DNA from: an uncultured Bifidobacteriaceae bacterium
Lineage (GTDB): Bacteria > Verrucomicrobiota > Verrucomicrobiia > Limisphaerales > UBA11358
Assembly (NCBI GenBank): GCA_964413505.1
Contig: CAYPTV010000001.1
Coordinates: forward strand, 1 to 32,089
DNA: 32,089 nucleotides
Direction of reading: 5' to 3'
Part shown: piece after piece, positions 2,845 through 22,665 of the stretch
Layout of the letters: each line of letters opens with the position of its first letter
How positions within the stretch are numbered: the stretch's first letter is position 1
The notes under the pieces: generated by a model
Told to the model about the DNA's origin: nothing
Seen by the model: the letters and a program-made list of their open reading frames with translations, nothing else
Database searches by the model: none
Made by a program: the position numbers and the translations under genes

Positions 2845-5010
2845 ATGAAAAATCTAACACCAGTTCCGCCGTCGGATCCGGGCTTCCAGTTGATGGAGCC
2901 GATGACGAACAGCCACGCCGCGCCGCCTCCGAAATTTCGGCCGCAGAAGCTCTTGTTCTTCCTGCGGAAATTTTGGTGGATACCGCTCGTTGCGATGGTG
3001 TTGAGTTTCGGAATAGCCGTCTATAAATTTTTTCGGACCCCGCCGATATTTGTTTCATATGGACGTTTGGTGGAGACTGAAAAGCTGCAATTACCGGGTG
3101 GCGCCGGCTTTTCCGGTGACCAGGCCAACGGTTCTGAAAGGGACACTTATCTCGGCACGTTGTCTGAATTGCTCCGCGATGAAACAATGAGGGATATGAC
3201 GACGAACAGGCTGGCAACATTCTCCACAAGCAAGTATGTCCTGGAAAATCTCGATCTCCCCGTGGACATTCAAGTCTACACCTCGGCGAAAAGTTCCATT
3301 TATACGATTGAAACACGCAGCAAGAACCCGGCATTCACCTCGGCTTTCCTCGACGCTCTCATGGAGTCGTATCTGGATTATCGCAAAACCACCCGGCGCG
3401 AAGTTTCCGAAGGAACGCTGGCTTCCATCTCCGAACAAGTTCAGCGGCTGGAGCGCGACATGAAGGACGGACAGAAGGCGCTGAACGACTATGAACAGAG
3501 CAACAATTTTGCGGTCTTGCAGGAAGAAAGCACCATCGAAGCGTCCTATCTGGTCAAGTTGAAAACGGAATTGTCCGACTATCAGCTGGAAGTGCAGTTG
3601 CTTGCCGCCAAGGAACTCGAGGCGGATTCGGGCCAGGCGGGAGCAACGAACGACAGTGACACGATTTTTGATTCGCTGCGCACTTCCGGCTCCGCCGTGT
3701 CTTCCGCCTCCGGCCGGATGGATGCCGAACAGCAAATTGATCTGCTCAAGGCGGATCGCGAAAGACTGTCCAAATATCTTCTTCCCAAGCATCCAAAAAT
3801 GGTCAAGCTGGACGAACAAATCGCCCGCGCCCAAAAATTGATTGACGTCTACAGCCAGCAAAACCACGAGCAAATTGCCGCCGCGCGCGAGGCACTGCAG
3901 ATTAAAATTGACAGCGTCGAACAATTTATCACGGAGTGGGAGGCCAAGGTGGCGGACGCCAACCAACGCATCGCCACTGCGGACGGTCTCAAGCAGGACG
4001 TTCTTCGCAATCAAGGGTTGTATGACCGGCTCACGGCTCTTTTGCAAAATGTTGACATCAGCCGGAACATTGACCAGGACACGCTTTCCATTTTGGATCA
4101 CGCCACGCCGTCCTCGCGTTCCTATTCAGAAGGAAAAACCGCGATCATTCATTCCATCTTCATCGGGCTTGGCCTGGGTCTGGGAATTGTCCTGCTGATC
4201 GCCATCCGCGACGACCGGTTTATTTCAATTGGCGAAGTGACCGAAAGGTTTGGCGACAACGTCGTCGGCCAGGTGCCGGAAATTCCAGAATTTTCAAGTT
4301 CAGCGTCGCTGTCCCTTTTGGAGGACAACGATGACCGTCATATGTATGCCGAGTCCTATCGCAACCTTCGTTCGGCGCTCCTCTATCTTGGCGTCGAAGG
4401 CCGGCGGCCCAAGGTCGTGCTTGTCACCAGCTCGGTGCCGAATGAAGGCAAGTCCACCATTGCCACCAATCTAGCCCGCGCGCTGGCGTTGGGCGGCGCC
4501 AAGGTGCTGCTGATGGATGGAGACATGCGCAAAGGGCGCATCCATGACATGTTGAAGCTGCAATCCAAGCCCGGCTTGAGCGATTTGCTGCGCCAGCCGG
4601 ATGATCCAGAAAAATTCATCCAAACCACCGACCTGCCAAATTTCAATTTCCTGTCCAGAGGCAGCATCACCCGCAATCCCGGCGATCTGCTTCTAAGCCC
4701 GGCGCTGGACCAGATTCTCGCCCGTCTTCGTGATCAATACGATCACATCCTGATTGACAGTTGCCCGGTGTTTGCGGCGGACGACACGTCCAACATCGCC
4801 CCCAAGGTGGACGGCACGTTGTTTGTGGTGCGCAGCCGTTTTTCCCATGCCCGCATGGTCCGTGAGGCGCTGGAACTGCTCTTTCAGCGTCAGGCCAAGG
4901 TGCTTGGATTGATTTTGAACCGTTCGGATTCCAACGCCCGCTCCAATTACTATTACAAGTATGGCGAGTATTACTCGACCAATGTCCCGGACGAGGCTGA
5001 AGCTTCGTGA
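2845..5010 (+). CDS. Polysaccharide co-polymerase with C-terminal BY-tyrosine kinase (Wzc/GumC-like, PCP-2a)
   Basis: Two TM segments (WWIPLVAMVLSFGIAVY and IFIGLGLGLGIVLLIAI) bracket a long coiled-coil periplasmic region. The kinase has Walker A VTSSVPNEGKST, A' LLMDGDMRKG and B HILIDSCP. The C-terminal Tyr cluster is SNYYYKYGEYYS. Confidence 0.88.
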   Translation: MKNLTPVPPSDPGFQLMEPMTNSHAAPPPKFRPQKLLFFLRKFWWIPLVAMVLSFGIAVYKFFRTPPIFVSYGRLVETEKLQLPGGAGFSGDQANGSERDTYLGTLSELLRDETMRDMTTNRLATFSTSKYVLENLDLPVDIQVYTSAKSSIYTIETRSKNPAFTSAFLDALMESYLDYRKTTRREVSEGTLASISEQVQRLERDMKDGQKALNDYEQSNNFAVLQEESTIEASYLVKLKTELSDYQLEVQLLAAKELEADSGQAGATNDSDTIFDSLRTSGSAVSSASGRMDAEQQIDLLKADRERLSKYLLPKHPKMVKLDEQIARAQKLIDVYSQQNHEQIAAAREALQIKIDSVEQFITEWEAKVADANQRIATADGLKQDVLRNQGLYDRLTALLQNVDISRNIDQDTLSILDHATPSSRSYSEGKTAIIHSIFIGLGLGLGIVLLIAIRDDRFISIGEVTERFGDNVVGQVPEIPEFSSSASLSLLEDNDDRHMYAESYRNLRSALLYLGVEGRRPKVVLVTSSVPNEGKSTIATNLARALALGGAKVLLMDGDMRKGRIHDMLKLQSKPGLSDLLRQPDDPEKFIQTTDLPNFNFLSRGSITRNPGDLLLSPALDQILARLRDQYDHILIDSCPVFAADDTSNIAPKVDGTLFVVRSRFSHARMVREALELLFQRQAKVLGLILNRSDSNARSNYYYKYGEYYSTNVPDEAEAS

Positions 5011-5047
5011 AGCGCGGATATAAATCCGCGCTCCTTTTGATTTTTTA
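5011..5047 (+). terminator. Rho-independent terminator after the wzc-like gene
   Basis: Perfect 9-bp stem AGCGCGGAT (5011-5019) / ATCCGCGCT (5024-5032) with a 4-nt loop, followed by CCTTTTGATTTTTT. A second, weaker hairpin GGAAGACC..GGTCTTCC sits at 5102-5119. Confidence 0.7.
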
Positions 5048-5215
5048 CAGGCGGCGATGGCGGCTTGGGATGAAGTGAATAAATGACTGTCATTCGCAGG
5101 CGGAAGACCGGGGTCTTCCTTTCGGAATAATGGAACATGGCGATCAAAAGACCCGTAGATTCGCGGAATCAAAAAGCATCTGCGAATTGACCGGCACGAA
5201 GTGTCTTTAAAAAAA

Positions 5216-5318
5216 TCTGAAATGCTGAAATGAGAAATTGGGAAATAGGAAATGAAATTATTTTTGATTTGTTTTGATTCCGCTTTCATAATTTTAGGGT
5301 TTAAGCTTTTGATGATTT
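5216..5318 (+). repeat. Junction element A: GAAA-rich arm followed by a TTTC/TTTG-rich arm, ending at the wzm ATG
   Basis: tctgaaatgctgaaatgagaaattgggaaataggaaatgaaatt | atttttgatttgttttgattccgctttcat...aagcttttgatgatttATG. It shares the modules GAAATGAAaTT, TTCCGCTTT and AGCTTTTGAT with the elements at 19355, 22566 and 27652. Confidence 0.6.
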
Positions 5319-6206
5319 ATGCCTGATCTGCGTCTTCCACCTTCCGACCTCCGGCCTCCAGCCTCCGACGAGGGCTGGACCACCATCATCTCGCCCCATC
5401 GGGGCTGGCTTGACTGGCGGCTGAAGCAGCTCTGGCGCTATCGCGACCTGATTTCCCTGTTCGTGTGGCGCGATTTCGTCTCCGCCTACAAACAAACCAT
5501 CCTAGGACCGCTCTGGCACATCATCCAGCCGCTGCTCACCACCATCACGTTCACCATCATCTTCGGCAAGATCGCCAGGCTGTCAACCGACGGCGTGCCG
5601 CCGTTCCTTTTTTATCTGGCGGGAAACGTCTGCTGGAGTTATTTCGCTAACAACATCAACAAGACCTCCAGCACCTTCGTGGGCAACTCCGCGCTGCTGG
5701 GCAAGGTCTATTTTCACCGGCTTGTCATCCCGATCTCCATCGCCATCTCCAACCTCGTTTCCTTTGCCATCCAGCTCGGAATTTTTCTGGTGTTTCTTGC
5801 CATCAATTACCGCGCCGGGAACAACGTGCATTTCACCGGCTGGGTTTTTTGCACGCCGCTGTTCCTGTTGATGCTCGCTGGCTATGGCCTCGGCGGCGGC
5901 ATCATCGTCTCGGCGCTGACGACGCGCTATCGCGACCTCACCAACCTCGTCGCCTTCGGCGTGCAACTGCTGATGTTTGCCACGCCGGTGATCCTTCCCT
6001 TGTCGCAGATGCCGCCGAAATACCGCTGGGTGATGGAGTTCAATCCGCTGACGCCTGTCGTCGAGGGCTTCCGGCGCGGATTTCTCGGCGCGGGCAGCGT
6101 GGACGCGGTGCAACTGGGAACCAGCTTCGGCGTCATGCTCGTGGTGCTCGCCGTCGGCCTGATGCTCTTCACGCATGTAGAGAGAACGTTTATGGACACG
6201 GTCTAG
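5319..6206 (+). CDS. wzm: ABC-2 type polysaccharide/O-antigen export permease
   Basis: The N-terminal signature LKQLWRYRDLISLFVWRDFVSAYKQTILGPLWHIIQPLLTTITFTIIFG is followed by about 6 hydrophobic helices, as is typical of Wzm/TagG/KpsM permeases. Confidence 0.85.
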   Translation: MPDLRLPPSDLRPPASDEGWTTIISPHRGWLDWRLKQLWRYRDLISLFVWRDFVSAYKQTILGPLWHIIQPLLTTITFTIIFGKIARLSTDGVPPFLFYLAGNVCWSYFANNINKTSSTFVGNSALLGKVYFHRLVIPISIAISNLVSFAIQLGIFLVFLAINYRAGNNVHFTGWVFCTPLFLLMLAGYGLGGGIIVSALTTRYRDLTNLVAFGVQLLMFATPVILPLSQMPPKYRWVMEFNPLTPVVEGFRRGFLGAGSVDAVQLGTSFGVMLVVLAVGLMLFTHVERTFMDTV

Positions 6207-6224
6207 CGCCGAAGGCGCGACGAC

Positions 6225-6291
6225 GGACTACGAGACCGCAAGACAACAGACCATGCGGATACGAGACCACTGACCACAGGACAACAAGACC
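6225..6291 (+). repeat. Left flank of the four-helix-bundle cassette (T-poor ACG-rich tract with internal direct repeats)
   Basis: ggactacgagaccgcaagacaacagaccatgcggatacgagaccactgaccacaggacaacaagacc. ACGAGACC occurs twice (6230, 6261). GAGACCACTGAC (6263-6274) is the exact reverse complement of 6679-6690. Confidence 0.65.
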
Positions 6292-6678
6292 ATGAGAGAT
6301 TACACGAAGATTGAAGCGTGGAAACTGGCGGACGATTTGACGGTGGCCGTCTATGAACAAACACGGCTATTTCCAAGAGAGGAAATTTATGGGCTGACCA
6401 GCCAGTTGCGCCGCGCTTCGTATTCCGTGCCTGCAAATATTGTGGAAGGTTCCTCGCGCGAGAGCAAAAAGGACTACTTGCACTTCCTTTACATTTCGCG
6501 TGGCTCGTTATCGGAAACCCAGTATTTCATTCACTTGTCACGGCGGCTTGGCTATCTGTCTGTCGCGGATGCAGAGCGATTGATTGGACAGACCCGACAG
6601 ACGTTTGCGTGTTTGCACGGCTTGATTAAGGCAGTCGAAAAAGAGGCGGGGAAGTTTGGAAAGTCAGTAGTCCCGTAG
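6292..6678 (+). CDS. Four-helix-bundle protein (23S rRNA intervening-sequence protein / Avd-like family)
   Basis: YTKIEAWKLADDLTVAVYEQTRLFPREEIYGLTSQLRRASYSVPANIVEGSSRESKKDYLHFLYISRGSLSETQYFIHLSRRLGYL is the canonical motif set of this family. Confidence 0.88.
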   Translation: MRDYTKIEAWKLADDLTVAVYEQTRLFPREEIYGLTSQLRRASYSVPANIVEGSSRESKKDYLHFLYISRGSLSETQYFIHLSRRLGYLSVADAERLIGQTRQTFACLHGLIKAVEKEAGKFGKSVVP

Positions 6679-6690
6679 TCAGTGGTCTCA
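6661..6690 (+). repeat. Right flank of the four-helix-bundle cassette (inverted copy of the left flank)
   Basis: aagtcagtagtcccgtagtcagtggtctca. GTCAGTGGTCTC (6679-6690) pairs perfectly (12 bp) with 6263-6274. Pairing extends inward imperfectly for about 11 more positions and covers the stop codon. Confidence 0.65.
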
Positions 6691-6697
6691 TTTTCTT

Positions 6698-7969
6698 ATG
6701 TCTACCGTCATTTCCGTTGAAAATGTCTCCAAGGCCTACCGCCTGGGGCAGATTGGCGGTGGCACGCTCAAGGAAGACGTTGCCCGCTGGTGGGCGAAGC
6801 TGCGCGGCAGGCCGGACCCGTTCCTGAAGATCGGCGAGGAACATCATGCGCGCCACATGGGCGAGCAGTTCTGGGCGCTGGACAATGTCAGCTTCGAGGT
6901 CAAGCAGGGCGAGGTGCTGGGCATCATCGGACGCAACGGCGCGGGCAAGAGCACGCTGTTGAAAATTCTTTCACAAGTCACCACGCCGACGAGTGGACAG
7001 ATCAAGATCAAGGGACGCATTGCGTCCCTGCTGGAGGTGGGCACCGGGTTTAACCCGGAAATGACCGGGCGCGAAAACATTTTCCTCAACGGCGCCATCC
7101 TGGGCATGACCAAGGCCGAAATACGGAAAAATTTTGACGAAATCGTGGCGTTTTCCGGGGTTGAAGAATTCATAGATACTCCGGTGAAACGTTATTCCAG
7201 CGGCATGTATGTGCGGCTGGCGTTTGCGGTGGCCGCGCATTTGGAACCGGAGATTCTGATCGTGGACGAAGTGCTGGCGGTGGGTGATGCCGAGTTCCAA
7301 AAAAAATGCATTGGAAAAATGCAGGATGTAGCTGGGCATGGACGCACAATACTTTTTGTGAGCCACAACATTGGTGCCGTGCGCACCCTTTGCAGCACAG
7401 GCATATTGCTTAAGAATGGTAAGCTTGAAATATCAGGCCCCATCGATGACATAATTGGAGCTTATATGGACTCTGGAGTGCAGCAGGCTAACAGCCATAC
7501 AGTAATAATTCCAAAGCCACCGAAGCGCTGCACGGTGTGGATGGAATCCGTCTCCATACTCTGCAATGGCAACCGAAAATCGACACTGGAAATCGGTGAC
7601 AAATTGTGTCTTGAAGTTAAATTTAGATCGTATGATCCTATTCAAAGACCAATTATTGGTTATCTCATCCGTTCGTCTCGTGGAGAAGACTTGGTGAATG
7701 CCAACAATTATTTTCTTCCGTCGCCTGATTACCCAACACCAGTCACGGATGGCACAATCGTCTGCGACTTGGGAGATTTGCCTCTTATGTCTGGATCATA
7801 TTCAGTTTCATTTTGGTTGTGCCGCAATCCTCACGAGCAACATCATGTAGAGGATGTATTGCATTTTACCGTCGAAGAAAAAAATATTTGGGGCACTGAT
7901 GCGCTGCCAAATAAATCGTTAGGTGGTCTCTGGTGGCCTACACAATTCAGATTTTCAGCGAACGATTAA
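6698..7969 (+). CDS. wzt: Polysaccharide/O-antigen ABC exporter ATPase with a C-terminal carbohydrate-binding-type extension
   Basis: Walker A GRNGAGKST, signature YSSGMYVRLAFA, Walker B ILIVDEVLAVGD and H-loop FVSHN. A ~170-aa C-terminal extension follows (from about 7440), as in Wzt/TagH proteins that recognise the glycan terminus. Confidence 0.88.
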   Translation: MSTVISVENVSKAYRLGQIGGGTLKEDVARWWAKLRGRPDPFLKIGEEHHARHMGEQFWALDNVSFEVKQGEVLGIIGRNGAGKSTLLKILSQVTTPTSGQIKIKGRIASLLEVGTGFNPEMTGRENIFLNGAILGMTKAEIRKNFDEIVAFSGVEEFIDTPVKRYSSGMYVRLAFAVAAHLEPEILIVDEVLAVGDAEFQKKCIGKMQDVAGHGRTILFVSHNIGAVRTLCSTGILLKNGKLEISGPIDDIIGAYMDSGVQQANSHTVIIPKPPKRCTVWMESVSILCNGNRKSTLEIGDKLCLEVKFRSYDPIQRPIIGYLIRSSRGEDLVNANNYFLPSPDYPTPVTDGTIVCDLGDLPLMSGSYSVSFWLCRNPHEQHHVEDVLHFTVEEKNIWGTDALPNKSLGGLWWPTQFRFSAND

Positions 7970-12105: not shown

Positions 12106-12437
12106 CAAAACACTTCGTAAAACTGTCAAAACGATTTGTGATTGGAGCATAACGATTCATGTCGCGGACAAATCCCTTCGTATTTGCCTCAAAACACTGT
12201 TATGCGCTGGCTAAAATCTTTTGTTCGGGAACAAAACACTGTTGTTATGTGCAAAACACTTTTGTATGGAGCCGGATACGATTTGTTTGCGGCAGAACAC
12301 TTTTACTTTGGGACAAAACACTGTTGTTCCGGCCCAAAATGAAAGTGTTTCAGTCAAAACACTGTTGTTCCGGTGTAAAACACATCGTCTTTGAAGCCAT
12401 TCAATTCATGTTTGCGCAAAAACTGGGATTATCTTGT
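12106..12437 (+). repeat. Degenerate tandem array of about 16 units of 20-21 bp (core CAAAACACTGTTGTT)
   Basis: Units start at 12106, 12127, 12148, 12169, 12190, 12211, 12232, 12252, 12273, 12293, 12314, 12335, 12355, 12376, 12397 and 12417. caaaacactgttgttccgg is identical at 12314-12332 and 12355-12373. Confidence 0.85.
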
Positions 12438-12550
12438 TCACAAACAATGCTGGTAGGGCGCGTCACTTGTATCTTGTATTTTATCTTCCTTGTTTGGCGA
12501 CAGCCAAACGGGAAGTTATGTGCATAATCTCACATCAGTGCCAAAAATGC

Positions 12551-12578
12551 TTGAAAATTTCCTCATTTTGTGTATTTT
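12551..12578 (+). promoter_or_regulatory. Candidate sigma70-like promoter for the giant gene
   Basis: TTGAAA (12551-12556), a 16-nt spacer, then TATTTT (12573-12578) with TG immediately upstream. If used, it excludes the GTG 12570 start and gives a very short leader to ATG 12594. This is a pattern match only. Confidence 0.25.
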
Positions 12579-12593
12579 ACAAGGCATAATTTC

Positions 12594-15500
12594 ATGCAAC
12601 AATTGACAAAGCCAAGGCTGTTTTGCTGCATAAAACGTTTTCTGACGGTTGCTGCGGTTATCCTCGCATTTCAAGCGGTGCTGACACGCGGTGGGCTTCC
12701 CAATCCTGTTGTGCCCATCACATGGAATGGTGCCGCAAGCGGTTTGCCCAACGGGAACTGGGATATTCTTAACACCGCAAACTGGGTCACCACCTCGGGA
12801 GGCGCGCCTTACGAATATCAGGACACGAGCGCGGTGACGTTCGATGATTCGCTGGCCGGCACCACCAATGTCATCCTGACTACGACGCTTTCACCCGGCA
12901 GCATCACGGTGAACAACACGCTTTCAAATTATGTGTTCAGCGGCTCGGGCAAAATCAGCGGGACAACCGGCTTGACAAAAACCGGCAGCGGCACATTGGT
13001 TGTGGACAACAGCGGCTCGAATGCTTTCAGCGGCAGTGTCACCATCAGTGCCGGGACAATCCAGATTGGCAACGGCGACGCCAGCGGAAACCTGCCGGGT
13101 GCGGTGATTGACAACGGTTCATTGATCTTCAACCGTGGCGATACCAGCCTCACCCATGCGGGCGTCATTTCTGGAACCGGCACGGTGTTCAATAACGGCA
13201 GTGGCACGGTGACTTTGAGCGTTGCCAACACCTTTACTGGCGGGCTCACCCTTAACAACGGCACGTTGATGGTCAACAGCACCGGCAATGGCAGCACTTC
13301 GTTGGGTGGCGTGGCCAACAACACCAGTTCAACCGCTGCCGCCAATGTGACCGTCAACGCCGGTGCCACCCTGGTGGGACTTGGTGCCGATGCATTTGGT
13401 TACTATCCGCATACAGCACCCGGAACCATCTTCATCAACGGTGGAACCGTTACGGACGTTGGAACCTCCAGTTATCGTATCACGCTGCCAAATCTGACCT
13501 TCACCGGCGGCACACTGGCCAGCGCCGCAGGGAATGCCGGCGACGCCAATGGGAATTACTCACTGTATGGCACCGGAGCGCCGTGCACCATAACCACCTT
13601 GAGCAACAACACAACGGCGGTCATCAGTGCTGGAATAATAACTTTGCAGCAGAACAATCAACCCACCGGAACGACCGCCTTCAATGTCGCTGCTGGCAAT
13701 GTCACCGGTGGAATGACTCCCGGAGTGGATTTACTCGTGTCTTCAGTCATTGCAAATTTCGGCGCTGAAGTGGGCAGCGTTCTAAAAACCGGTTCGGGCG
13801 TCATGGCTTTGGATTCAACCAACCTCTACACCGGCACGACGACTGTCAGCGGCGGGACGCTACAGTTGGGCACGACCAATGACACGGCTGTGTTGGCCGA
13901 GCCCGTGGGCACAGGAGCGGTAACCAACAATGCCATCCTGAATTTTGCCAGCGGCCAGGGGGTCGCCGTCCACAACATCATCAGCGGCACTGGCGCGGTG
14001 GTGGTGAGCAGCGGAACCAACATCCTTACGGCCACGAACACCTATGCTGGGAATACGATGGTGAAAGCGGGCATACTGTTGTTGACTGGCAGCAGCTCGA
14101 TAGCCAACAGTCCGACCATCACGTTAGCGAGTGGCGCAACATTTGATGTGTCCCAGCTGGCCAGTCCGTTCACCGTGGGCGCGGGCCAGACTTTGGGCGG
14201 CAGCGGAATCATTTCAGGGAACGTGATTGTCAATGGAAAGCTCCAGACCGGCGTGACCAATACAATTAACGGGAATCTCACTTACAATACCGGAACCGAG
14301 GCGGATTTTAATTTAAACACCAGCGCCACGGGCGGAGGCAATGATCAGACAGTCTTGAATGGCGCTGGCAGCATCCTGTCTTGCGGCGGAGCGAGCATCG
14401 GCATCAATTGCGGCGCAATCCTGGATCAGGCAAATGATTACACGCTCTTCAACCTGACCGGCGGCTCGGCCAGCATCGTGAGCAATTTCAATGTCATGCC
14501 AGTCTGGACTGGAACGACTCCGGCCAATGCCAGTTCCTATGGTATTGTGATCTTGCGAAACAAAGTCCTGCTTCACTTTAATTCCACTGGCACGACAAAT
14601 CTACCGGTGGTTACGAACCTTCCGGCCTCAAACATTGCTGCAACGACTGCGACTTTGAACGGCCAGGTGCTTTCGACGGGCGGCCAGTATCCGGCGGTCA
14701 ACATTTATTACGGCACAACCGATGGCGGGACAAATCCGGCGGCGTGGGCAACGAATGTTTCTTTGGGGTTGCAAACCGGATCCTTTGCCGCGGCGGCTTT
14801 CAACCTGACTACAAACACCACCTACTACTTCACCACTTCAGCCTCAAACTCGGCGGGCATGGCCTGGGCTACGCCTTCACAGTCATTCACCACGACGGTG
14901 GCGAGCGTGGCCGTGGCAACAAACCTGCCGGCTTCAAATGTGCAGGGCAGCTCGGCAATCCTGAACGGCCAGATTCTCTCCATCGGCAGTCAAGTCCCAA
15001 CAGTGACCTTGTATTATGGCCCGACCGATGGCGGAACCAATGCCTCAAACTGGGCGAACAATGTTTATCTCGGCCAGCAGGGCGGAAACTTTATCGTCAC
15101 AGTCACCGGCCTGTCCACCAACACGACTTATTATTATGCTGCAGCCGCCACAAACATCGCCGGCACGGCCTGGGCCAGCCCTTCAGCCAACTTCACCACA
15201 CTGCCGACGGCTCTCGTAGTTTCGGTGCTGACCTATCATTATGACAATGCGCGAACCGGGGCCAACACCAACGAGACATTGCTGACACCTTCGATTGTCA
15301 ACACGAACAGCTTCGGTCTATTGATCAAGTATGTGGTGGACGGGTTTGTTGTCGCTCAGCCATTGTATGTGCCAAGCGTGGCCATTCCCGGGCAAGGCAC
15401 TCATAACGTCGTGTTTGTGGCGACCGAGAATGCCAGTATTTATGCCTTTGACGCGGACGGCAACACGGCGGTAAATGGCGGATTATTATGGCACACCAAC

Positions 15501-18500
15501 CTGGGGATAGTGCCTTTACTCAGCAATGGTGAATTTGGCTATCGTTATGGAATCGGTAATGGCCTCAACATAGGTTATTATGAACAGGGCATCACCGACA
15601 CGCCTGTCATCGACCCTGTTTCTGGAACGATTTATGTGGATGTTCTTACGCGTGAAGTCACGACAACAACGAATTATTACCATCGTATCCACGCCTTGAG
15701 CATCACCAACGGCATGGAACAATCCTACAGCCCGGTGGTGGTCACTGCTTCGGTTCCTGGAACCGGCATGGACAGCTCGAACGGAGTGGTGACATTTAAT
15801 GCCAAGCAACAAAACCAACGCCCCGGACTGACGCTTGCCGGCGGAATTTTATACGTCGCCTATGGCAGTTTTAACGACACCGATCCGTTTCATGGCTGGG
15901 TCATGGGTTTCAACGCCACCAATCTCGTTCAATTGACCAACTGCATTTTCAACACCACGCCCAACGCGACGACAAATGTATTTGGCCCAAATGCCGGTGA
16001 AGGTGCGCTGTGGATGGGCGGTGATGGATTATGCGTGGACGCCAACAACAACCTCTTTTTTCAAACGGGCAATGGCAGCTTCAGCGCAAATACCAACGGC
16101 GGGGATTACGCTGACAGCATGATCAAGCTCTCCACGTCCAATTCACTGGCGGTGGCCGACTATTTCACCCCCTACAATCAGCTCACGCTGGCCAACTTCG
16201 ACATTGATCTTGGCTCGTGCGGCGCTGTCTTGTTGCCAGACTCGGTCGGGAGCACGAACCATCCGCATCTGATCGTGTCAACCGGCAAAAGCGGAACGAT
16301 TTATCTCGTGGACCGGGATAACATGGGACATTACCACGGCACTGATGGCATCAACGGAAATGACAGCCAGATTGTGCAATCCGTGATTGGTGCGACCGCA
16401 AGCACATGGAGTTCCCCCGCCTATTTCAACAACCAGATTTATCTGCAGCCCAGCAGCGCCGCAATGAAGGCATTCATTATCACCAATGGCGTCATTGTCC
16501 CATCGATCACCTCCGTGGCTGCGGCGGGCGTTGGCCTGGTTAACGGCGGGCCGATCATTTCCGCCAACGGCGCAAGCAATGGGATTGTCTGGGTGCTGAA
16601 TAACAACTCTGGTGGCGGCACGGAGACATTGTATGCCTGCACCGCCAACAATATCGCACAGCAGCTCTACAACAGCAGCCAGCTTTCGCGGGACAATCCA
16701 GGCTTCGGGATAAAGATGACCACACCCATGGTGGCCAACGGGAAGGTGTATGTCGGGGCGCAGTATGCGTTGTCGGTGTATGGATTGACGACATTTGTGG
16801 CGACGCCCACCATCTCGCCCAACGGCATCGCATTCACCAATTCAGTGACGGTGACATTGAGCGACGCGACGGCGGGCACGGCGATCTATTACACCCTGAA
16901 CGGCACTATCCCGACGACGAATTCGCTGCTATACACAGGGCCCTTTGCCATCACCACCACGTTGAACTTGCAGGCCATCGCGGTAAAATCCGGTGCGGTG
17001 AACAGCGGGGTGGCGTCTGCCTCTTTTGTCAACACGGCCGCCTTGGGCAGCGGCATCGGATTGCTGGGCCAATACTGGACGAACACGAGTGCGCTGGCGT
17101 TCACGAATATTTCATTCAACACTGCGGCGACATTGACGCGGACGGACGCGGTGGTGAACTACAATTGGAGCACGAACGGGCCTGATCCCAGCATTGGGCA
17201 GACGAACTTCATCGCCAGCTGGACCGGGTCGGTGCAGCCGCAATACAGCGAGACCTACACCTTCACCACCGTTGCGGATGACGGGGTGCGTCTGTGGGTC
17301 AACGGGCAGTTGTTGATTGACGACTGGAACACTCATTCATCTACGACGACCAACAGCGGGAGCATCTCGCTCAATGCGCAGGAGCTTTACAACATCCAGA
17401 TGGATTATTTCCAGGGCGGCAGCAACGCCGTGGCACAACTGATGTGGAGCAGTCTCTCCGCGGCACAAAACATCATTCCGCAGACACAACTTTATCCCTA
17501 CACGAACTCGCCGCCGGCGGTCGTGCTTTCAAGCCCGGCGAACAACTCAAGTTACACCGCGACGGCGAGCGTGACGATCGGCGCGAATGCGGATGCGGCC
17601 TATAATCCAATCAGCGCGGTGAGTTTCTACGCCAACGGCGTTTTGCTGGGCACGGTGAGCAACAGCCCCTACGCACCGCTTTACGAACTGACGGCAACGG
17701 GGCTTGGCGCGGGCAGTTATGCGTTGACGGCGGTGGCCACGGACGGGAGCGGATTGTGCAGCACGTCGGCGTCGGTGAACATCACGGTCAACGCTGGGAG
17801 CGGAGCGCCCTACGGACTGACAAACACCGTTCCGGTCTCCGCGTTCCTGAACATGCCGACGACCTTCAACGGGGCATTGCCGGCATTGCTCTCAGGAACG
17901 GGAGCATTCAGCGACACCACCAACCGCATACCAGCTGGCGGATTGATTCCCTACCAGCCCAACACGCCGCTGTGGTCGGACGGCGCGGTCAAGAGCCGGT
18001 ATATGGTGGTGCCCAATCCCGCTCCGAGCGGGAGCGGGACGATCACGCCTGATCAGCAAATCGCCTTTGCACCGACCAACAACTGGACGTTCCCTGCGGG
18101 GACTGTGTTTGTGAAGAACTTCGACCTTGTGGTGGACCAGACCAGCACGAACACGCCCCTGCGCCGGCTGGAGACTCGTTTGCTGGTGCGGAACATCAAC
18201 GGAGCGGTGTATGGCGTGACCTACAAGTGGCGTCCGGACAACAGCGATGCCGATCTGCTCTCAAGCAGCCTGACGGAGAACATCTTGATCACCAATGCTA
18301 CAGGTGTGAGCACTCAGGCTTGGTATTACCCCAGCCCTGCGGACTGCCTGACCTGCCACACGCCCGTGGCCAATTATGTGCTGGGCGTCAACACACGGCA
18401 GTTGAACGGCAGCCTGACCTATCCCGCCACCGGTGTCACGGACAACCAGCTGAGGACATTGAACCATCTGGGCCTGTTCAACCCGGCGTTCGACGAATCA

Positions 18501-19334
18501 ACCATCACGAACTTTGAAAGCCTCTCGGCGCTGACCAATCTCACCGCATCACTGGAGGAACGGGCTCGCTCTTACCTTGATGCCAACTGCGCGCAGTGCC
18601 ATCAGCCCGGCGGATCGGGCATCACCTTCGACGCGCGCTACGACACGCCGCTCTCCCGGCAGAACATCACCAACTATCCGGCAGCATTCTCGCTGGGGGT
18701 GGACAGCGCCTGCATCATCAAGGCGGACGATGTCTGGCGTTCGGTGCTGCTGGCGCGCATCAACACCAATGCCGCGGCTATCAAGATGCCGCCGCTGGCG
18801 CGCAGCATCATTGACACCAACGCCGTGCAGGTGATTGCCGGCTGGATCAACAGCCTGTCGGGCATGCCCACCCTGGCACCGCCGGTCATCACGCCAAACG
18901 GCGGCAGCTACTACGCCTCGGTGGGTGTCACCCTCACGCCGCCCGACACCAATGCGGCCATCTACTACACGCTGGACGGCTCTCTGCCCACGACCGGTTC
19001 GCTGCAGTATTCGGGCGCGTTCAACCTGACGGGCAACGCGACCGTCACGGCCAGCGCGTTCGAGACTAACTTCAACAACAGCATCGGGGCCGGCGCGCAG
19101 TTCCTGGTGCAGCCGCTCAACTTCACGTCGCTGGGCTACAACACGGCCGGCGGCCAGTTCCAGATGGGCTTCGAGGGCGTCATGGGCGAAACCTATGTGC
19201 TCCAGGCCACCACCAATTTCACCGACTGGACCCCCATCAGCACCAACAACGCCACAACCAATTTCTTAAACCTCACAGACCCAGACTCCACCAACTTTCA
19301 GAACAGATTCTACAGGGTTCTGTTAATACAGTAA
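12594..19334 (+). CDS. Giant secreted multidomain surface protein (PATR beta-helix repeats, FN3-like x2, beta-propeller, PA14, Ig-like, dihaem-type module)
   Basis: A single uninterrupted ORF of 2254 aa from GTG 12570, or 2246 aa from ATG 12594. It has an N-terminal hydrophobic signal/anchor [22 protein letters not shown]. Domain evidence is listed in the sub-features below. Confidence 0.9.
   Translation: [2246 protein letters not shown]
12930..14580 (+). other. Domain: autotransporter-associated beta-strand (PATR) repeats / beta-helix region
   Basis: At least four PATR-type units: [109 protein letters not shown] and [35 protein letters not shown]. Confidence 0.75.
14598..15209 (+). repeat. 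Two tandem 102-aa (306-nt) FN3-like modules inside the giant gene
   Basis: TNLPASN starts at 14613 and again at 14919. Both copies share LNGQ(V/I)LS.G...P.V..YYG.TDGGTN...W.N.V.LG.Q.G.F......L..NTTYY......N.AG.AWA.PS..FTT at roughly 50 percent identity. Confidence 0.7.
15228..16790 (+). other. Domain: beta-propeller-like region (PQQ-like repeat type)
   Basis: [21 protein letters not shown]...AQPLYV...[19 protein letters not shown]...GTIYVDV...GILYVAYGS...[10 protein letters not shown]...[12 protein letters not shown]...[17 protein letters not shown] shows recurrent strand motifs typical of this propeller class. The assignment is from memory of the family and is not HMM-verified. Confidence 0.5.
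17050..17460 (+). other. Domain: PA14 (carbohydrate-binding/adhesin-type)
   Basis: GLLGQYWTN...[11 protein letters not shown]...[43 protein letters not shown]...[24 protein letters not shown] is the classic PA14 pattern. Confidence 0.8.
17805..18865 (+). other. Domain: two-CXXCH putative dihaem c-type cytochrome-like module
   Basis: CLTCH at 18345-18359 and CAQCH at 18588-18602. The context [18 protein letters not shown]...ETRLLVR...YKWR...[15 protein letters not shown]...IKMPPLAR resembles, from memory, the TIGR03806 / SO2930-type dihaem family. Confidence 0.5.
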
Positions 19335-19354
19335 TCAGGGGGAAGGCTGACATT

Positions 19355-19449
19355 CTGAAAATTGAAAATGACACAACAGAGGTCGGAAGTCAGAGGTCAG
19401 AGGTCCATTTCAGCTTTTTAGCTTTTCAAATTTTCAGTTTTTGATTTTT
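19355..19449 (+). repeat. Junction element B: 14-bp stem enclosing CAGAGGTC repeats, with a T-rich 3' side ending at the next ATG
   Basis: CTGAAAATTGAAAA (19355-19368) pairs with TTTTCAAATTTTCAG (19423-19437), leaving one bulged T. CAGAGGTC occurs at 19377, 19391 and 19398. ATTTCAGCTTTTT is at 19408. The element ends tttttgatttttATG. Confidence 0.65.
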
Positions 19450-21342: not shown

Positions 21343-22565
21343 ATTATTACGAGGAACTATACAATGGATGCCCTCCGCCGACGGGGAACATGTTCGGCAG
21401 CAAAAGCGATGGCCAAGCCGAACGGCTGGCGGAAGCCCGGAAACTTACCGGAATGATGCAGTCTCAACGCCCGTTCTGTTTCCTGCGCATGGGTGATGTC
21501 GAACTGAAATTTCTTTTGACCTATCAGGACAATCAACTGGATCAACTGGATCGTTCGGAATATGGCGACGGCCCCCTGTCCGGCACGCAAGGGTGCGGGA
21601 ATCCCGGCCTGGGACCAAAATATGCCAAACGCCTTTGGAACGTTTATGAGCAGGCCGACTATGTGGATTTCCATGAAAGGAACTGGCCGAACGAGCATCT
21701 GGTCAAAAAGTTGAAGATGGTCAGGAACTCCGGCACGCACCGGAACCCGGACAAAAATACCTCCGTCATTTTCCTGACCTGGGTCGAGAAGGAATTCAAA
21801 GAATACTGCAAGGGCCGACGCGTTGGCATTGCCGGTGCGGAATCACGATTACTGGAGATTCTTTGCAAGTCACAGGAGTTCAAGGCGGCGGCGGCAGATT
21901 ATTGGCCGGAGGATGCCGGGATATTTTTCCACCAAGCCCGGAATGACGGGCGAAACCTCGACGTCAATCTGGATCTGGTAAAAGAGGACTTGCGAAAATT
22001 TGTCGCCGACAACCGTCTGGACACACTTTTCCTCTCGTTGGGCGGCGGCGCAAAAATCCTTGGCTTTGAACTGTCCCGCGAACTTGGAATCTGCTGCTTT
22101 GATTTCGGAGCCATGACTCGGGCGTTGACTTATAGCGGCTGCGACGGAAACCGCGTGGCGCGTTCTCCTCATTCTCCATTTCTCTTTCGCATCCCGTTCG
22201 CGACTTACATGGACGCGCTCGAGAAAGCCATGCCGAAACTGACTCCGGCGGAACTTTTGGCCAAGGCCCACGGCCAGATTATTCTGGAGGTGGTGAAAAA
22301 GGAAGTCGGGTGGACTTTTGCCTCATGGGAACATGACTTCAGCGGGGAAAATCGCGCCGCCTTCAAAAAGGCATATCAGATTTATTGCAAACGCTACCGG
22401 CATCTGTTCAAGGCCGGCCCGGAGGCGCAAAGGGAAAGGACAGGTTTTCTGCATTTCTGCGGAACGAATGGGCTGACGCTGGAAGGGCGCTTTTTTATGG
22501 CAATCTTCCGGGCCAAAGGGATTGCTAGACGGTGTCTCGTGCTTAAGCAGAAAGTAGAAATTTAG
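21339..22565 (+). CDS. Hypothetical protein, possibly a GT-D/DUF1792-like glycosyltransferase
   Basis: A 408-aa ORF whose start overlaps the upstream stop (ATGA). CFLRMGDVELKFLL resembles the RFGDGE motif, and LSLGGGAKILGFELSRELGICCFDFGAM resembles the nucleotide-binding strand-loop of DUF1792 enzymes. The similarity is weak and recalled from memory. Confidence 0.35.
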   Translation: MNYYEELYNGCPPPTGNMFGSKSDGQAERLAEARKLTGMMQSQRPFCFLRMGDVELKFLLTYQDNQLDQLDRSEYGDGPLSGTQGCGNPGLGPKYAKRLWNVYEQADYVDFHERNWPNEHLVKKLKMVRNSGTHRNPDKNTSVIFLTWVEKEFKEYCKGRRVGIAGAESRLLEILCKSQEFKAAAADYWPEDAGIFFHQARNDGRNLDVNLDLVKEDLRKFVADNRLDTLFLSLGGGAKILGFELSRELGICCFDFGAMTRALTYSGCDGNRVARSPHSPFLFRIPFATYMDALEKAMPKLTPAELLAKAHGQIILEVVKKEVGWTFASWEHDFSGENRAAFKKAYQIYCKRYRHLFKAGPEAQRERTGFLHFCGTNGLTLEGRFFMAIFRAKGIARRCLVLKQKVEI

Positions 22566-22665
22566 GCGAAAAATTAGAAGTTGAGAAAGTAGAAATGAAT
22601 TTCAGCTTTCAGTTTTCCAAATTTCCGCTTTTTACTTTGGTTTGCCTTCTAGTTTTGGTTTGTTT
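22566..22665 (+). repeat. Junction element C: imperfect purine-arm/pyrimidine-arm palindrome ending at the next ATG
   Basis: gcgaaaaattagaagttgagaaagtagaaatgaa | tttcagctttcagttttccaaatttccgcttttt...ggtttgtttATG. The arms are roughly reverse-complementary. It shares the GAAATGAATTT, TTTCAGCTTT, TTTTCCAAATTT and TTCCGCTTTTT modules with A, B and D. Confidence 0.6.

Follow-up and report, generated by a model that had tools for sequence, protein, structure and literature searches.

A four-helix-bundle gene between inverted heptamer arrays at the wzm-wzt junction of a polysaccharide operon in an uncultured Limisphaerales bacterium

The stretch of DNA analysed here (32,089 nt of contig CAYPTV010000001.1, assembly GCA_964413505.1, GTDB order Limisphaerales; hereafter the window) is occupied by one long co-directional polysaccharide operon of the exopolysaccharide (EPS)/O-antigen type, in which the genes for the ABC-2 type export permease (wzm) and the ABC transporter ATPase (wzt) are separated by 491 bp holding a gene for a four-helix-bundle (4HB) protein. 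These 491 bp are probably an inserted cassette of the intervening sequence (IVS) type, in which one promoterless 4HB gene, reading in the direction of the operon, stands between inverted arrays of 7-8-nt GAC-core repeats that pair into a stem of ~30 bp. Comparison with relatives shows that the insertion occurred into an otherwise tight stop/start junction, that the cassette belongs to a multi-copy class in which the gene and its arms move together, and that unrelated cassettes sharing one design have entered the wzm-wzt junction time and again and degenerate there to repeat scars. The cassette behaves as an rRNA intervening sequence would, though it is not one by location.

The cassette and its predicted stem

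The wzm stop codon (TAG, 6204-6206) and the wzt start codon (ATG, 6698) leave a gap of 491 nt (6207-6697), in which a single 128-aa open reading frame (ORF) is found. Its product belongs to the 23S rRNA IVS protein/S23p family, matching both PF05635 (E = 2.6e-33, 114.8 bits with a cut-off of 33.8, profile positions 2-104 of 106) and TIGR02436 (E = 3.6e-33, 114.1 bits with a cut-off of 24). The nearest solved structure, by sequence comparison only, is 2GSC_A (XCC0516, the Xanthomonas S23p pentamer; E = 2.4e-24, residues 2-118), and 2RLD is a further match of the same kind (E = 5e-5). Both the gap and the identity of the gene agree with the sequence-only reading made earlier for this DNA. Among the PADLOC defence models, no family was matched at E up to 0.01, and an anti-phage defence reading was dropped on these grounds.

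Both arms of the cassette are tandem arrays of 7-8-nt units. This feature was missed by the sequence-only reading, which had described an exact 12-nt inverted repeat (GAGACCACTGAC and its complement GTCAGTGGTCTC) and GACTACG/CGTAGTC submotifs in both flanks; all of these were found on direct reading, the submotifs at 6226-6232 (GACTACG) and 6674-6680 (CGTAGTC). The upstream arm comprises ~10 degenerate units with a GAC core (GACTACG, AGACCGC, AGACAAC, AGACCAC, TGACCAC, GGACAAC, and AAGACC), GAC starting at positions 6226, 6234, 6242, 6249, 6265, 6272, 6280, and 6288, and its inner end adjoins the start codon of the 4HB gene. In the downstream arm GTC starts at 6663, 6670, 6678, and 6685, and the 4HB stop codon (TAG, 6676-6678) lies within this arm. 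The complementarity extends to 34 nt at 76% (6252-6285 with 6667-6700, repeat search), and RNAduplex predicted 30 pairs between 6251-6291 and 6662-6700 (-38.3 kcal/mol), in accordance with the earlier description of imperfect pairing that runs inward over the stop codon. The long-range stem around the ORF closes both the minimum-free-energy and the centroid fold of 6190-6720, and its weak outer pairs touch the wzt start codon (UAUG 6697-6700 with CAUG 6252-6255). Between the wzm stop codon and the upstream arm there is a 13-nt leader, CGCCGAAGGCGCG, which forms together with that stop codon a small GCGCC-GAA-GGCGC hairpin.

RNAduplex energies calculated for 100-nt flanks did not distinguish the real arms from shuffles (z = -0.6 to -5.7), and an ungapped Watson-Crick complementarity score (100 nt before the start codon versus -30 to +80 around the stop codon) with genomic control ORFs was used in their place. 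The flanks of the 4HB gene scored 14, a value reached or exceeded by 5 of 3000 control ORFs of 90-220 aa from the same genome (mean 7.0, 99th percentile 11).

Two wetland metatranscriptomes, in which the RNA is represented by assembled contigs of ~3x depth, contained transcripts of the cassette. An RNA fragment (6197-6338, 142 nt, run X9) begins in the last bases of wzm, spans the upstream arm, and stops within the 4HB gene, and an RNA contig (6542-6930, 389 nt, run X3) begins within the 4HB gene, spans the downstream arm, and stops in wzt; neither has mismatches. As the arms are crossed by RNA contigs and no promoter-like or terminator-like site was found within 6207-6697, the cassette is transcribed by read-through with the operon. 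The start of one RNA contig, assembled at low depth, falls at 6269 inside the upstream arm.

The junction in relatives and copies at other sites

A close wzm ortholog was absent from the same-genus and same-order genomes examined (best 52% identity). Establishing a strict empty site required a metagenome scan with Wzm, which yielded 80 loci of 54-97% identity; the interval from the wzm stop to the wzt start was read in each of them, and 74 of the junctions were labelled by content. About 26 junctions are empty (-4 to 45 nt, versus 491 nt in the window), an example being L027, where at 88% Wzm identity the junction reads TAG AAAAT ATG; in outgroup clades wzm and wzt overlap by ATGA, as is typical of coupled genes. 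Not all relatives carry the gene at this position, and the comparison of orthologous loci proposed by the sequence-only reading has thus revealed true empty sites.

About 45 of the 74 labelled junctions are occupied. Four types of 4HB cassettes were distinguished. Type A ('MSRLSEELRQRTK...') has arms of GCTGAAA/TTTCAGC units, type B ('MTFEDLESWQQAR...') arms of GAGAGAAGAGCG units, type C, to which the window cassette belongs, arms of GAC units, and type D arms of GGGGAGC units. All four types belong to PF05635, but the proteins of the other three are only 25-29% identical to that of the window. A ParE/antitoxin pair lies between arrays in L066, and an NTase-like gene adjoins a cargo-less hairpin in L032. 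Several junctions hold frameshifted or truncated 4HB remnants (L033-35, L047, L073, L080, L082, L090, and L097), others only bare array scars (L044, L077, and L084-94). The cargo at these junctions is always co-oriented with the operon.

On the Wzm tree the junction states require at least 25 changes, 13 of which are between filled and empty. A clade of seven loci with Wzm at least 96% identical (SH-aLRT 98) includes type C in the window, type A in five loci, and type B in one, while its sister is empty. The leader CGCCGAAGGCGCG is identical in the type-B locus (L037, Wzm 96% identical), which places the replacement breakpoint right after the leader and indicates that the cassette was swapped inside the site. 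Cassette type assorts independently of both flanks.

Other arrangements of repeat arrays were observed downstream of wzm in loci of two same-order genomes. In one of them (L015, G028:C83) a toxin-antitoxin module made up of a DUF433 gene and a PIN-like gene is bracketed by 7-8-nt arrays, and a 14-codon remnant of the wzt start has another array pair behind it. In the other (L020, G021:C216) the module bracketed by 7-8-nt arrays consists of an antitoxin gene and a RelE/ParE gene, and its two arrays of ~200 nt are in direct, not inverted, orientation.

Against 401 genomes of the order, the window protein has copies of 64-90% identity in other families and few within the genus, and none of these order-level matches occupies a wzm-wzt junction. 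A scan of species representatives returned relatives of 62-94% identity from Limisphaerales, 'subdivision 3', Pedosphaera, Chthoniobacterales/Udaeobacter, and Opitutales, and also from metagenome-assembled genomes (MAGs) of Pyrinomonadaceae, Abditibacteriales, and Sedimentisphaerales; the distribution of the type-C subfamily is patchy and crosses phyla. Most of these relatives sit at other junctions, often inside polysaccharide clusters. The 91 ORFs neighbouring the order-level matches include 13 GT1/GT4 glycosyltransferases and six ABC-2 permeases, other neighbours being GDP-mannose dehydratases, epimerases, UDP-glucose dehydrogenases, carbamoyltransferases, and AsnB-like genes. In three genomes of the representative scan, whose Wzm is only 34-38% identical, a related cassette is again located exactly between wzm and wzt: in Lacunisphaera (L140, 4HB protein 84% identical), in an Opitutaceae genome (L165, 75%), and in Methylomarinum (L208, 56%, with different arm units).

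Some of the type-C relatives provide information on how the cassettes are placed and copied. The cassette of L178, which is 94% identical to that of the window at the amino acid level (best segment) and 78% at the nucleotide level (ORF), comes after the ortholog of the Wzc-like gene and an intergenic segment that is conserved (window 5149-5225), and it starts immediately past the first GCTGAAA unit of the homologous region; the corresponding place in the window is occupied by the cargo-less GCTGAAA-type hairpin upstream of wzm. The assembly carrying L178 (SPRUCE 6) contains no close wzm ortholog. In L150 the wzm stop codon is followed by a GCTGAAA array, then by a short GAC array, and then by the type-C gene. 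Taken together, these arrangements suggest that cassettes land in or beside existing hairpins. In L110 (G350:C34, 250-2050) two type-C cassettes at a distance of 1 kb agree at 353 of 357 nt (98.9%), and in the arms this agreement covers ~25 nt upstream and ~75 nt downstream; as the arms are duplicated together with the gene, gene plus arms is the unit that was copied. The two copies flank a HicB/HicA-like toxin-antitoxin pair, and the first has a premature TGA at codon 10. A long CACCTTC array was also noticed after the second copy.

The genome containing the window (G000, a 768-contig MAG, 74% complete) has eight PF05635 matches, six of them complete copies, and within the genus the number of 4HB copies per genome ranges from 0 to 14. 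The six complete copies score 11-20 for flank complementarity, the 99th percentile of the controls being 11, and wherever the flanks are assembled, short tandem repeats before the gene are matched by their reverse complement after it. The repeat units themselves vary (TTGATGG, GGAATGC/GGAGTGC, GAATGAAGA, CATTCAA, and AAATCTC), i.e., the structure of the arms is conserved among the paralogs and their sequence is not. The census of flanks suggested in the sequence-only reading has thus come out in support of the cassette, inverted repeats being present on all complete copies, if with different units. The paralogs are all co-oriented with their upstream gene and occupy tight junctions: between DUF47 and Pit genes, behind a GmhA-like gene, behind an integrase-like gene, and beside TatD-like genes.

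Two of the paralogous sites have peculiarities of their own. On C593 (216-2144) a gene for an integron-integrase-like tyrosine recombinase (C-terminus ...GVRSPLDG) is directly followed by a 4HB cassette with CATTCAA arms, past which there are two degenerate partial copies of the recombinase 3' end with an array between them; this looks like repeated insertion at a single target. On C717 (480-1658) the 4HB frame between the DUF47 and Pit genes is open to the contig end (393 codons) and overlaps the Pit gene in another frame, which may mean that the stop codon was lost or that the frame is open by chance, the DNA being GC-rich.

Selection was analysed on 38 intact type-C ORFs, the unit logo being built from 38 loci and the GAC/GTC counts from 48. 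Synonymous sites are saturated (median pS 0.81) whereas median pN is 0.20, and dN/dS amounts to 0.06-0.11 where dS is finite; hence, the 4HB protein is kept by purifying selection. In spite of this divergence, the arms of relatives with at least 62% identity retain GAC-N-A-C-R-R units at 7-8-nt spacing. The median GAC count in the 120 nt upstream is 7 in these relatives and 1 in more distant ones (p = 3e-11), the corresponding downstream GTC counts being 7 and 2 (p = 6e-9). Relatives below ~60% identity use other units, such as GGCTGAA, CTGTGAG, GGGGTAT, and GAGAGGC. Selection for pairing alone would permit the unit to drift by compensatory change; as the unit is instead conserved, and switches with the protein subfamily, we infer that it is recognised sequence-specifically, and the cassette's own 4HB protein would be the simplest candidate reader.

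Heptamer hairpins and competing explanations

Several observations weigh against the cassette reading, the first group of them concerning heptamer arrays and other cargo. Arrays of period 7 are strongly over-represented in G000: at a TRF (Tandem Repeats Finder) score of at least 52 there are 91 of them, versus 3-11 for other periods (a score of 28 was too permissive, and the threshold was raised because periods 6 and 9 represent coding periodicity). A complementary partner within 120 nt, forming a cargo-less hairpin, was found for 85 of 327 arrays and for 3 of 327 controls, while 14 arrays have a partner only at cassette distance (250-1100 nt). Cargo-less hairpins (~40) are far more numerous in G000 than loaded ones. 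Moreover, cargo other than 4HB genes occurs between arrays, namely toxin-antitoxin pairs, a GxxExxY gene (TIGR04256, E = 4e-44; C160:6204-6694) enclosed by CACCAAGA arms, hairpins of this type being found on C136, C159, and C160, and an AT-rich gene for a 260-aa lipoprotein enclosed by GCAGAGA/TCTGCGC arrays (C733:640-1540). Given the excess of cargo-less hairpins and the other cargo, the 4HB gene need not drive the element. In addition, co-descent could account in part for the correspondence of repeat units to protein subfamilies.

Gene-less heptamer arrays have been published for Xanthomonas (GGGAATC), Nostoc (GGGGAYT), cyanobacteria (short tandemly repeated repetitive sequences, STRR), and Geobacter metallireducens (PMC4692102, PMC2700814). 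Like the arrays described here, they are tandem runs of 7-nt units (~4 copies) that lie preferentially between co-directional ORFs within ~50 bp of a stop or start codon, frequently form convergent inverted pairs, are transcribed, and vary in copy number, and G000 has a similar excess of period-7 arrays and cargo-less hairpins. In contrast to the window cassette, the published arrays enclose no gene, and they have been read as G-quadruplex or regulatory sites (PMC4692102, PMC2700814). These reports draw no connection to PF05635 genes, and the terms S23 and 'intervening' do not occur in the Xanthomonas paper.

The heptamer hairpin could accordingly be the primary intergenic repeat, comparable to repetitive extragenic palindromic (REP) sequences and bacterial interspersed mosaic elements (BIME), to STRR, or to the GGGAATC arrays of Xanthomonas, with small genes as secondary cargo and the 4HB protein as neither driver nor reader. 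The abundance of period-7 arrays, with many near partners and few at cassette distance, speaks for this possibility, although the decay series at the junction (L033-35, L073, L044, and L077) implies that cargo-less hairpins can derive from loaded ones. The arm unit AATGAAG of the 4HB cassette on C705 is common to at least seven cargo-less hairpins, whereas GAC-type cargo-less hairpins in G000 are at chance level (22 further loci versus ~21 expected). The variety of cargo, which besides the genes on C160 and C733 includes the ParE/antitoxin pairs of L066 and L020, the placement of GAC cassettes directly behind GCTGAAA-type units in L150 and L178, and the published arrays between aligned ORFs all fit a pre-existing hairpin; however, the unit type follows the 4HB subfamily across saturating divergence, and the nearly identical pair of L110 includes the gene as well as the arms. 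We consider a primary role of the hairpin rather unlikely, and it remains a serious rival to the cassette reading.

The second group of adverse points concerns the junction itself. Wzt identity is only 60-85% among loci with 96% identical Wzm, which implies that locus recombination also breaks at the wzm-wzt junction, and homologous recombination of the polysaccharide locus could explain part of the junction turnover. In its extreme form this explanation would dispense with insertion at the junction altogether, the O-antigen/EPS locus having been swapped via the conserved wzm flank with the cassette carried along. It would agree with the enrichment of type-C relatives in polysaccharide clusters and with a breakpoint at the junction; yet the loci with Wzt of 80-85% identity include type-A cassettes, one of type B (at 80%, L031), a scar, and an empty site, and the leader common to a type-B locus precedes a type-C cassette in the window, so that the breakpoint lies inside the site. 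Furthermore, related cassettes (4HB proteins 56-84% identical) are found between wzm and wzt genes of the three genomes with distant Wzm, and at least four unrelated cassettes each had to enter the junction at least once. Passive transport with the locus is thus a very improbable origin of the 491 bp.

No target-site duplication was found on comparing filled and empty junctions, and no transposase was seen. Strain-level polymorphism between filled and empty forms was likewise not observed, DNA runs X1, X2, and X4 showing at high identity the filled form only. The joints listed in the DNA runs, which have short sides at a 90% similarity threshold and probably come from other organisms, included no strain-level filled/empty joint, and a variant DNA contig in X1 that resembled an empty site turned out to be a relative carrying a type-B cassette. 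Finally, RNA contigs cross both arms, so that uncut RNA (or DNA contamination) must make up some of the material at least.

Apart from these points, some arrays of G000 were noticed inside long ORFs (C119:5687-6384, C23:7065-8372, C55:1342-3193, C72:6491-6523, and C474:1880-1930) encoding BioF/BioA-like proteins, a glycosyltransferase, a membrane protein, a short-chain dehydrogenase/reductase (SDR), and a methyltransferase. These arrays stay in frame without stop codons and give short repetitive peptide inserts.

Proposed mechanism, known systems, and neighbouring features

By analogy with the 23S IVS of Coxiella, for which this has been demonstrated, the stem formed in the polycistronic RNA would be a substrate of RNase III, whose gene (rnc) is encoded in G000. 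Cleavage would excise the cassette RNA and part the wzm message from the wzt message; the excision would make the insertion tolerable and would release the wzt start codon paired at the base of the stem. The sequence-only reading had likewise suggested that the stem could serve in processing or stability and so uncouple permease from ATPase expression. The 4HB protein is proposed to read the repeat unit because this unit persists where divergence is saturating and differs between protein subfamilies, and the cassettes may spread by inserting into repeat hairpins and junctions that already exist, or by recombining there.

The pairing of the stem base with the wzt start codon could also be taken as a sign of a host-selected regulatory module, in which the stem-loop and its gene, coding for an RNA-binding protein, would act as an attenuator or mRNA-stability element setting the Wzm:Wzt ratio, without being selfish. 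Recurrent occupancy of wzm-wzt in distant taxa might be expected from such a module, but many close relatives function with an empty, overlapping junction; purifying selection on the protein would also be in line with it, but the cassettes at this site are often frameshifted, truncated, or reduced to scars, and the same design occurs at unrelated junctions (between DUF47 and Pit, after the integrase gene, and after the GmhA-like gene). We see hardly any chance that this is the correct explanation.

Among the known systems, ORF-bearing 23S rRNA IVSs (the Coxiella burnetii IVS with S23p; Leptospira, Brucella, and Xanthomonas-type S23p) are the closest to the cassette. In the Coxiella IVS the terminal stem measures 28 bp, the heptamer GACAGAT occurs three times in tandem before the S23p start, RNase III cleaves at the first of these repeats, and the ORF is decaying (PMC4990558). 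The two share the PF05635/S23p protein family, the terminal inverted repeats that form a stem of ~28-30 bp around the ORF, and GAC-core heptamers directly before the start codon (GACAGAT in Coxiella; GACCACT/GACTACG here); in both the ORF tends to decay, and both are regarded as selfish or mobile (PMC4990558). However, the Coxiella IVS is located in helix 45 of 23S rRNA, whereas the window element separates two genes that code for proteins in an mRNA operon; excision by RNase III has been demonstrated there and is predicted by analogy here; and the Coxiella ORF is degenerating while the protein of the window cassette is under clear purifying selection (dN/dS ~0.1). As both flanking genes are protein-coding and the insertion is not in a 23S rRNA helix (9, 25, or 45), the element is not an rRNA IVS in the strict sense. 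The likeness to Coxiella, the repeats flanking the paralogs, and the empty sites uphold the idea, put forward in the sequence-only reading, that the element is a self-contained cassette, inserted here and built like an IVS from a stem and an ORF.

The 4HB protein is also a member of the same superfamily as Avd, the accessory protein of diversity-generating retroelements (DGRs), a pentameric, positively charged protein that binds nucleic acid and reverse transcriptase. None of the 36 RVT_1 matches of the assembly is on contig C1 (template and variable repeats were not searched separately); a DGR/Avd reading was rejected, as the contig carries no reverse transcriptase, and the association with Avd mentioned in the sequence-only reading has no relevance here. 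All 36 RVT_1 matches are on short contigs (C446 to C767, 1.5-3 kb each), and the four that were translated look like the LINE type (APE endonuclease plus reverse transcriptase). The presence of such fragments, characteristic of eukaryotic retrotransposons without long terminal repeats (non-LTR), suggests that the bin contains eukaryotic contamination.

With MITEs (miniature inverted-repeat transposable elements), insertion sequences (IS), REP/BIME, and integron cassettes the element has in common that it is small, intergenic, flanked by inverted repeats, multi-copy, and scar-leaving. Unlike in MITEs and IS, the arms differ among the copies of one genome, and there is no shared terminal-repeat sequence; a classical IS/MITE reading was rejected in view of these differing arms, the lack of a target-site duplication and of a transposase, and the single 128-aa ORF. 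An integron cassette has attC only 3' of its ORF and needs IntI, whereas here the arms enclose the ORF, and this reading was rejected on architecture.

A more general proposal, which we put forward tentatively and regard as possible rather than probable, is that PF05635 proteins and inverted heptamer arrays constitute a self-propagating system without a canonical transposase. Each protein would read its own unit (GAC-N-AC in the subfamily of the window cassette, other units in other subfamilies), and gene-plus-arms units would colonise transcribed stop/start junctions and hairpins across phyla, with wzm-wzt as a preferred site; rRNA IVSs would be copies that landed in rRNA, and cargo-less (STRR-like) hairpins would be decayed footprints.

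To our knowledge, S23p/IVS 4HB proteins and bacterial heptamer repeats have each remained unexplained for ~30 years and have been described separately. The locus connects the two, presenting the IVS design in an ordinary mRNA operon, and its junction is a rich natural experiment with ~80 relatives, empty sites, four unrelated cassettes, decayed copies, and scars. Conservation of the unit far beyond neutral expectation, together with its switch between subfamilies, gives the concrete hypothesis that the protein binds its own repeats and that the stem is an RNase III site. If this is correct, there exists a widespread class of small mobile cassettes that shapes operon architecture and the mosaicism of polysaccharide loci, and the origin of rRNA intervening sequences would be explained. 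For annotation, the locus would account for many 'four helix bundle protein' genes wedged in operons and for many assembly breaks in MAGs. In the searchable literature, IVSs with S23p, heptamer arrays, and 4HB genes near cas loci are described only separately, and a gene-plus-heptamer-arm cassette at operon junctions, hot-spot turnover, and unit conservation are not described; the junction series, the saturating-divergence case for a conserved repeat unit, and the co-transcription evidence are new here.

The features of the window are listed in Table 1.

Table 1. Positions of the cassette, its repeat arms, host genes, and related hairpins in the window.
Feature	Position	Strand	Basis or remark
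Wzc-like tyrosine autokinase gene	2845-5010		TIGR01007
Cargo-less heptamer-array hairpin (CTGAAAT/GCTGAAA ... TTTCA/TTTTAG)	5204-5300	+	Just upstream of wzm; read directly
wzm, ABC-2 type polysaccharide-export permease	5319-6206	+	Upstream host gene; PF01061, E = 1.1e-23
13-nt leader CGCCGAAGGCGCG	6207-6219	+	After the wzm stop; read directly
Upstream arm, ~10 degenerate 7-8-nt GAC-core units	6219-6291	+	Reaches the 4HB start codon; sequence, direct-repeat family D1
Left core of the inverted repeat, perfect 12 nt, GAGACCACTGAC	6263-6274	+	
4HB gene, 128 aa, 23S rRNA IVS protein/S23p family	6292-6678	+	PF05635, TIGR02436
Downstream arm with GTC-core units	6662-6700	+	Sequence, repeat search, folding
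Right core GTCAGTGGTCTC	6679-6690	+	Exact complement of GAGACCACTGAC
wzt, ABC transporter ATPase with Wzt C-terminal carbohydrate-binding domain	6698-7969	+	Downstream host gene; PF00005, E = 8.7e-25; PF14524, E = 5.1e-17
Cargo-less GCTGAAA/TTTCAGC hairpin	19345-19442		After the 2254-aa ORF; second array (CAGAGGT x3) in the loop
Cargo-less GCTGAAA/TTTCAGC hairpin	22550-22640		After the gene ending at 22565

The best NCBIfam matches of the wzm product are Wzm/RfbD and KpsM permeases. A terminator-like hairpin lies 3' of the Wzc-like gene (5011-5032), and two sigma-70-like promoter matches (5187-5292) overlap the cargo-less hairpin ahead of wzm; judging from these motifs, wzm may be the first gene of a transcription unit. 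This hairpin and the other two cargo-less hairpins of the window, all at gene junctions of the operon, are built from the type of unit seen on either side of type-A cassettes in the nearest wzm relatives. Further downstream, a CAAAACACTGTTGTT-like motif recurs ~9 times at intervals of 30-45 nt (12159-12527) directly ahead of a giant ORF of 2254 aa (12570-19334). The 122-aa 'ORF' listed at 12159-12527 is probably not a gene, and the motif array may be a candidate regulatory or binding-site array.

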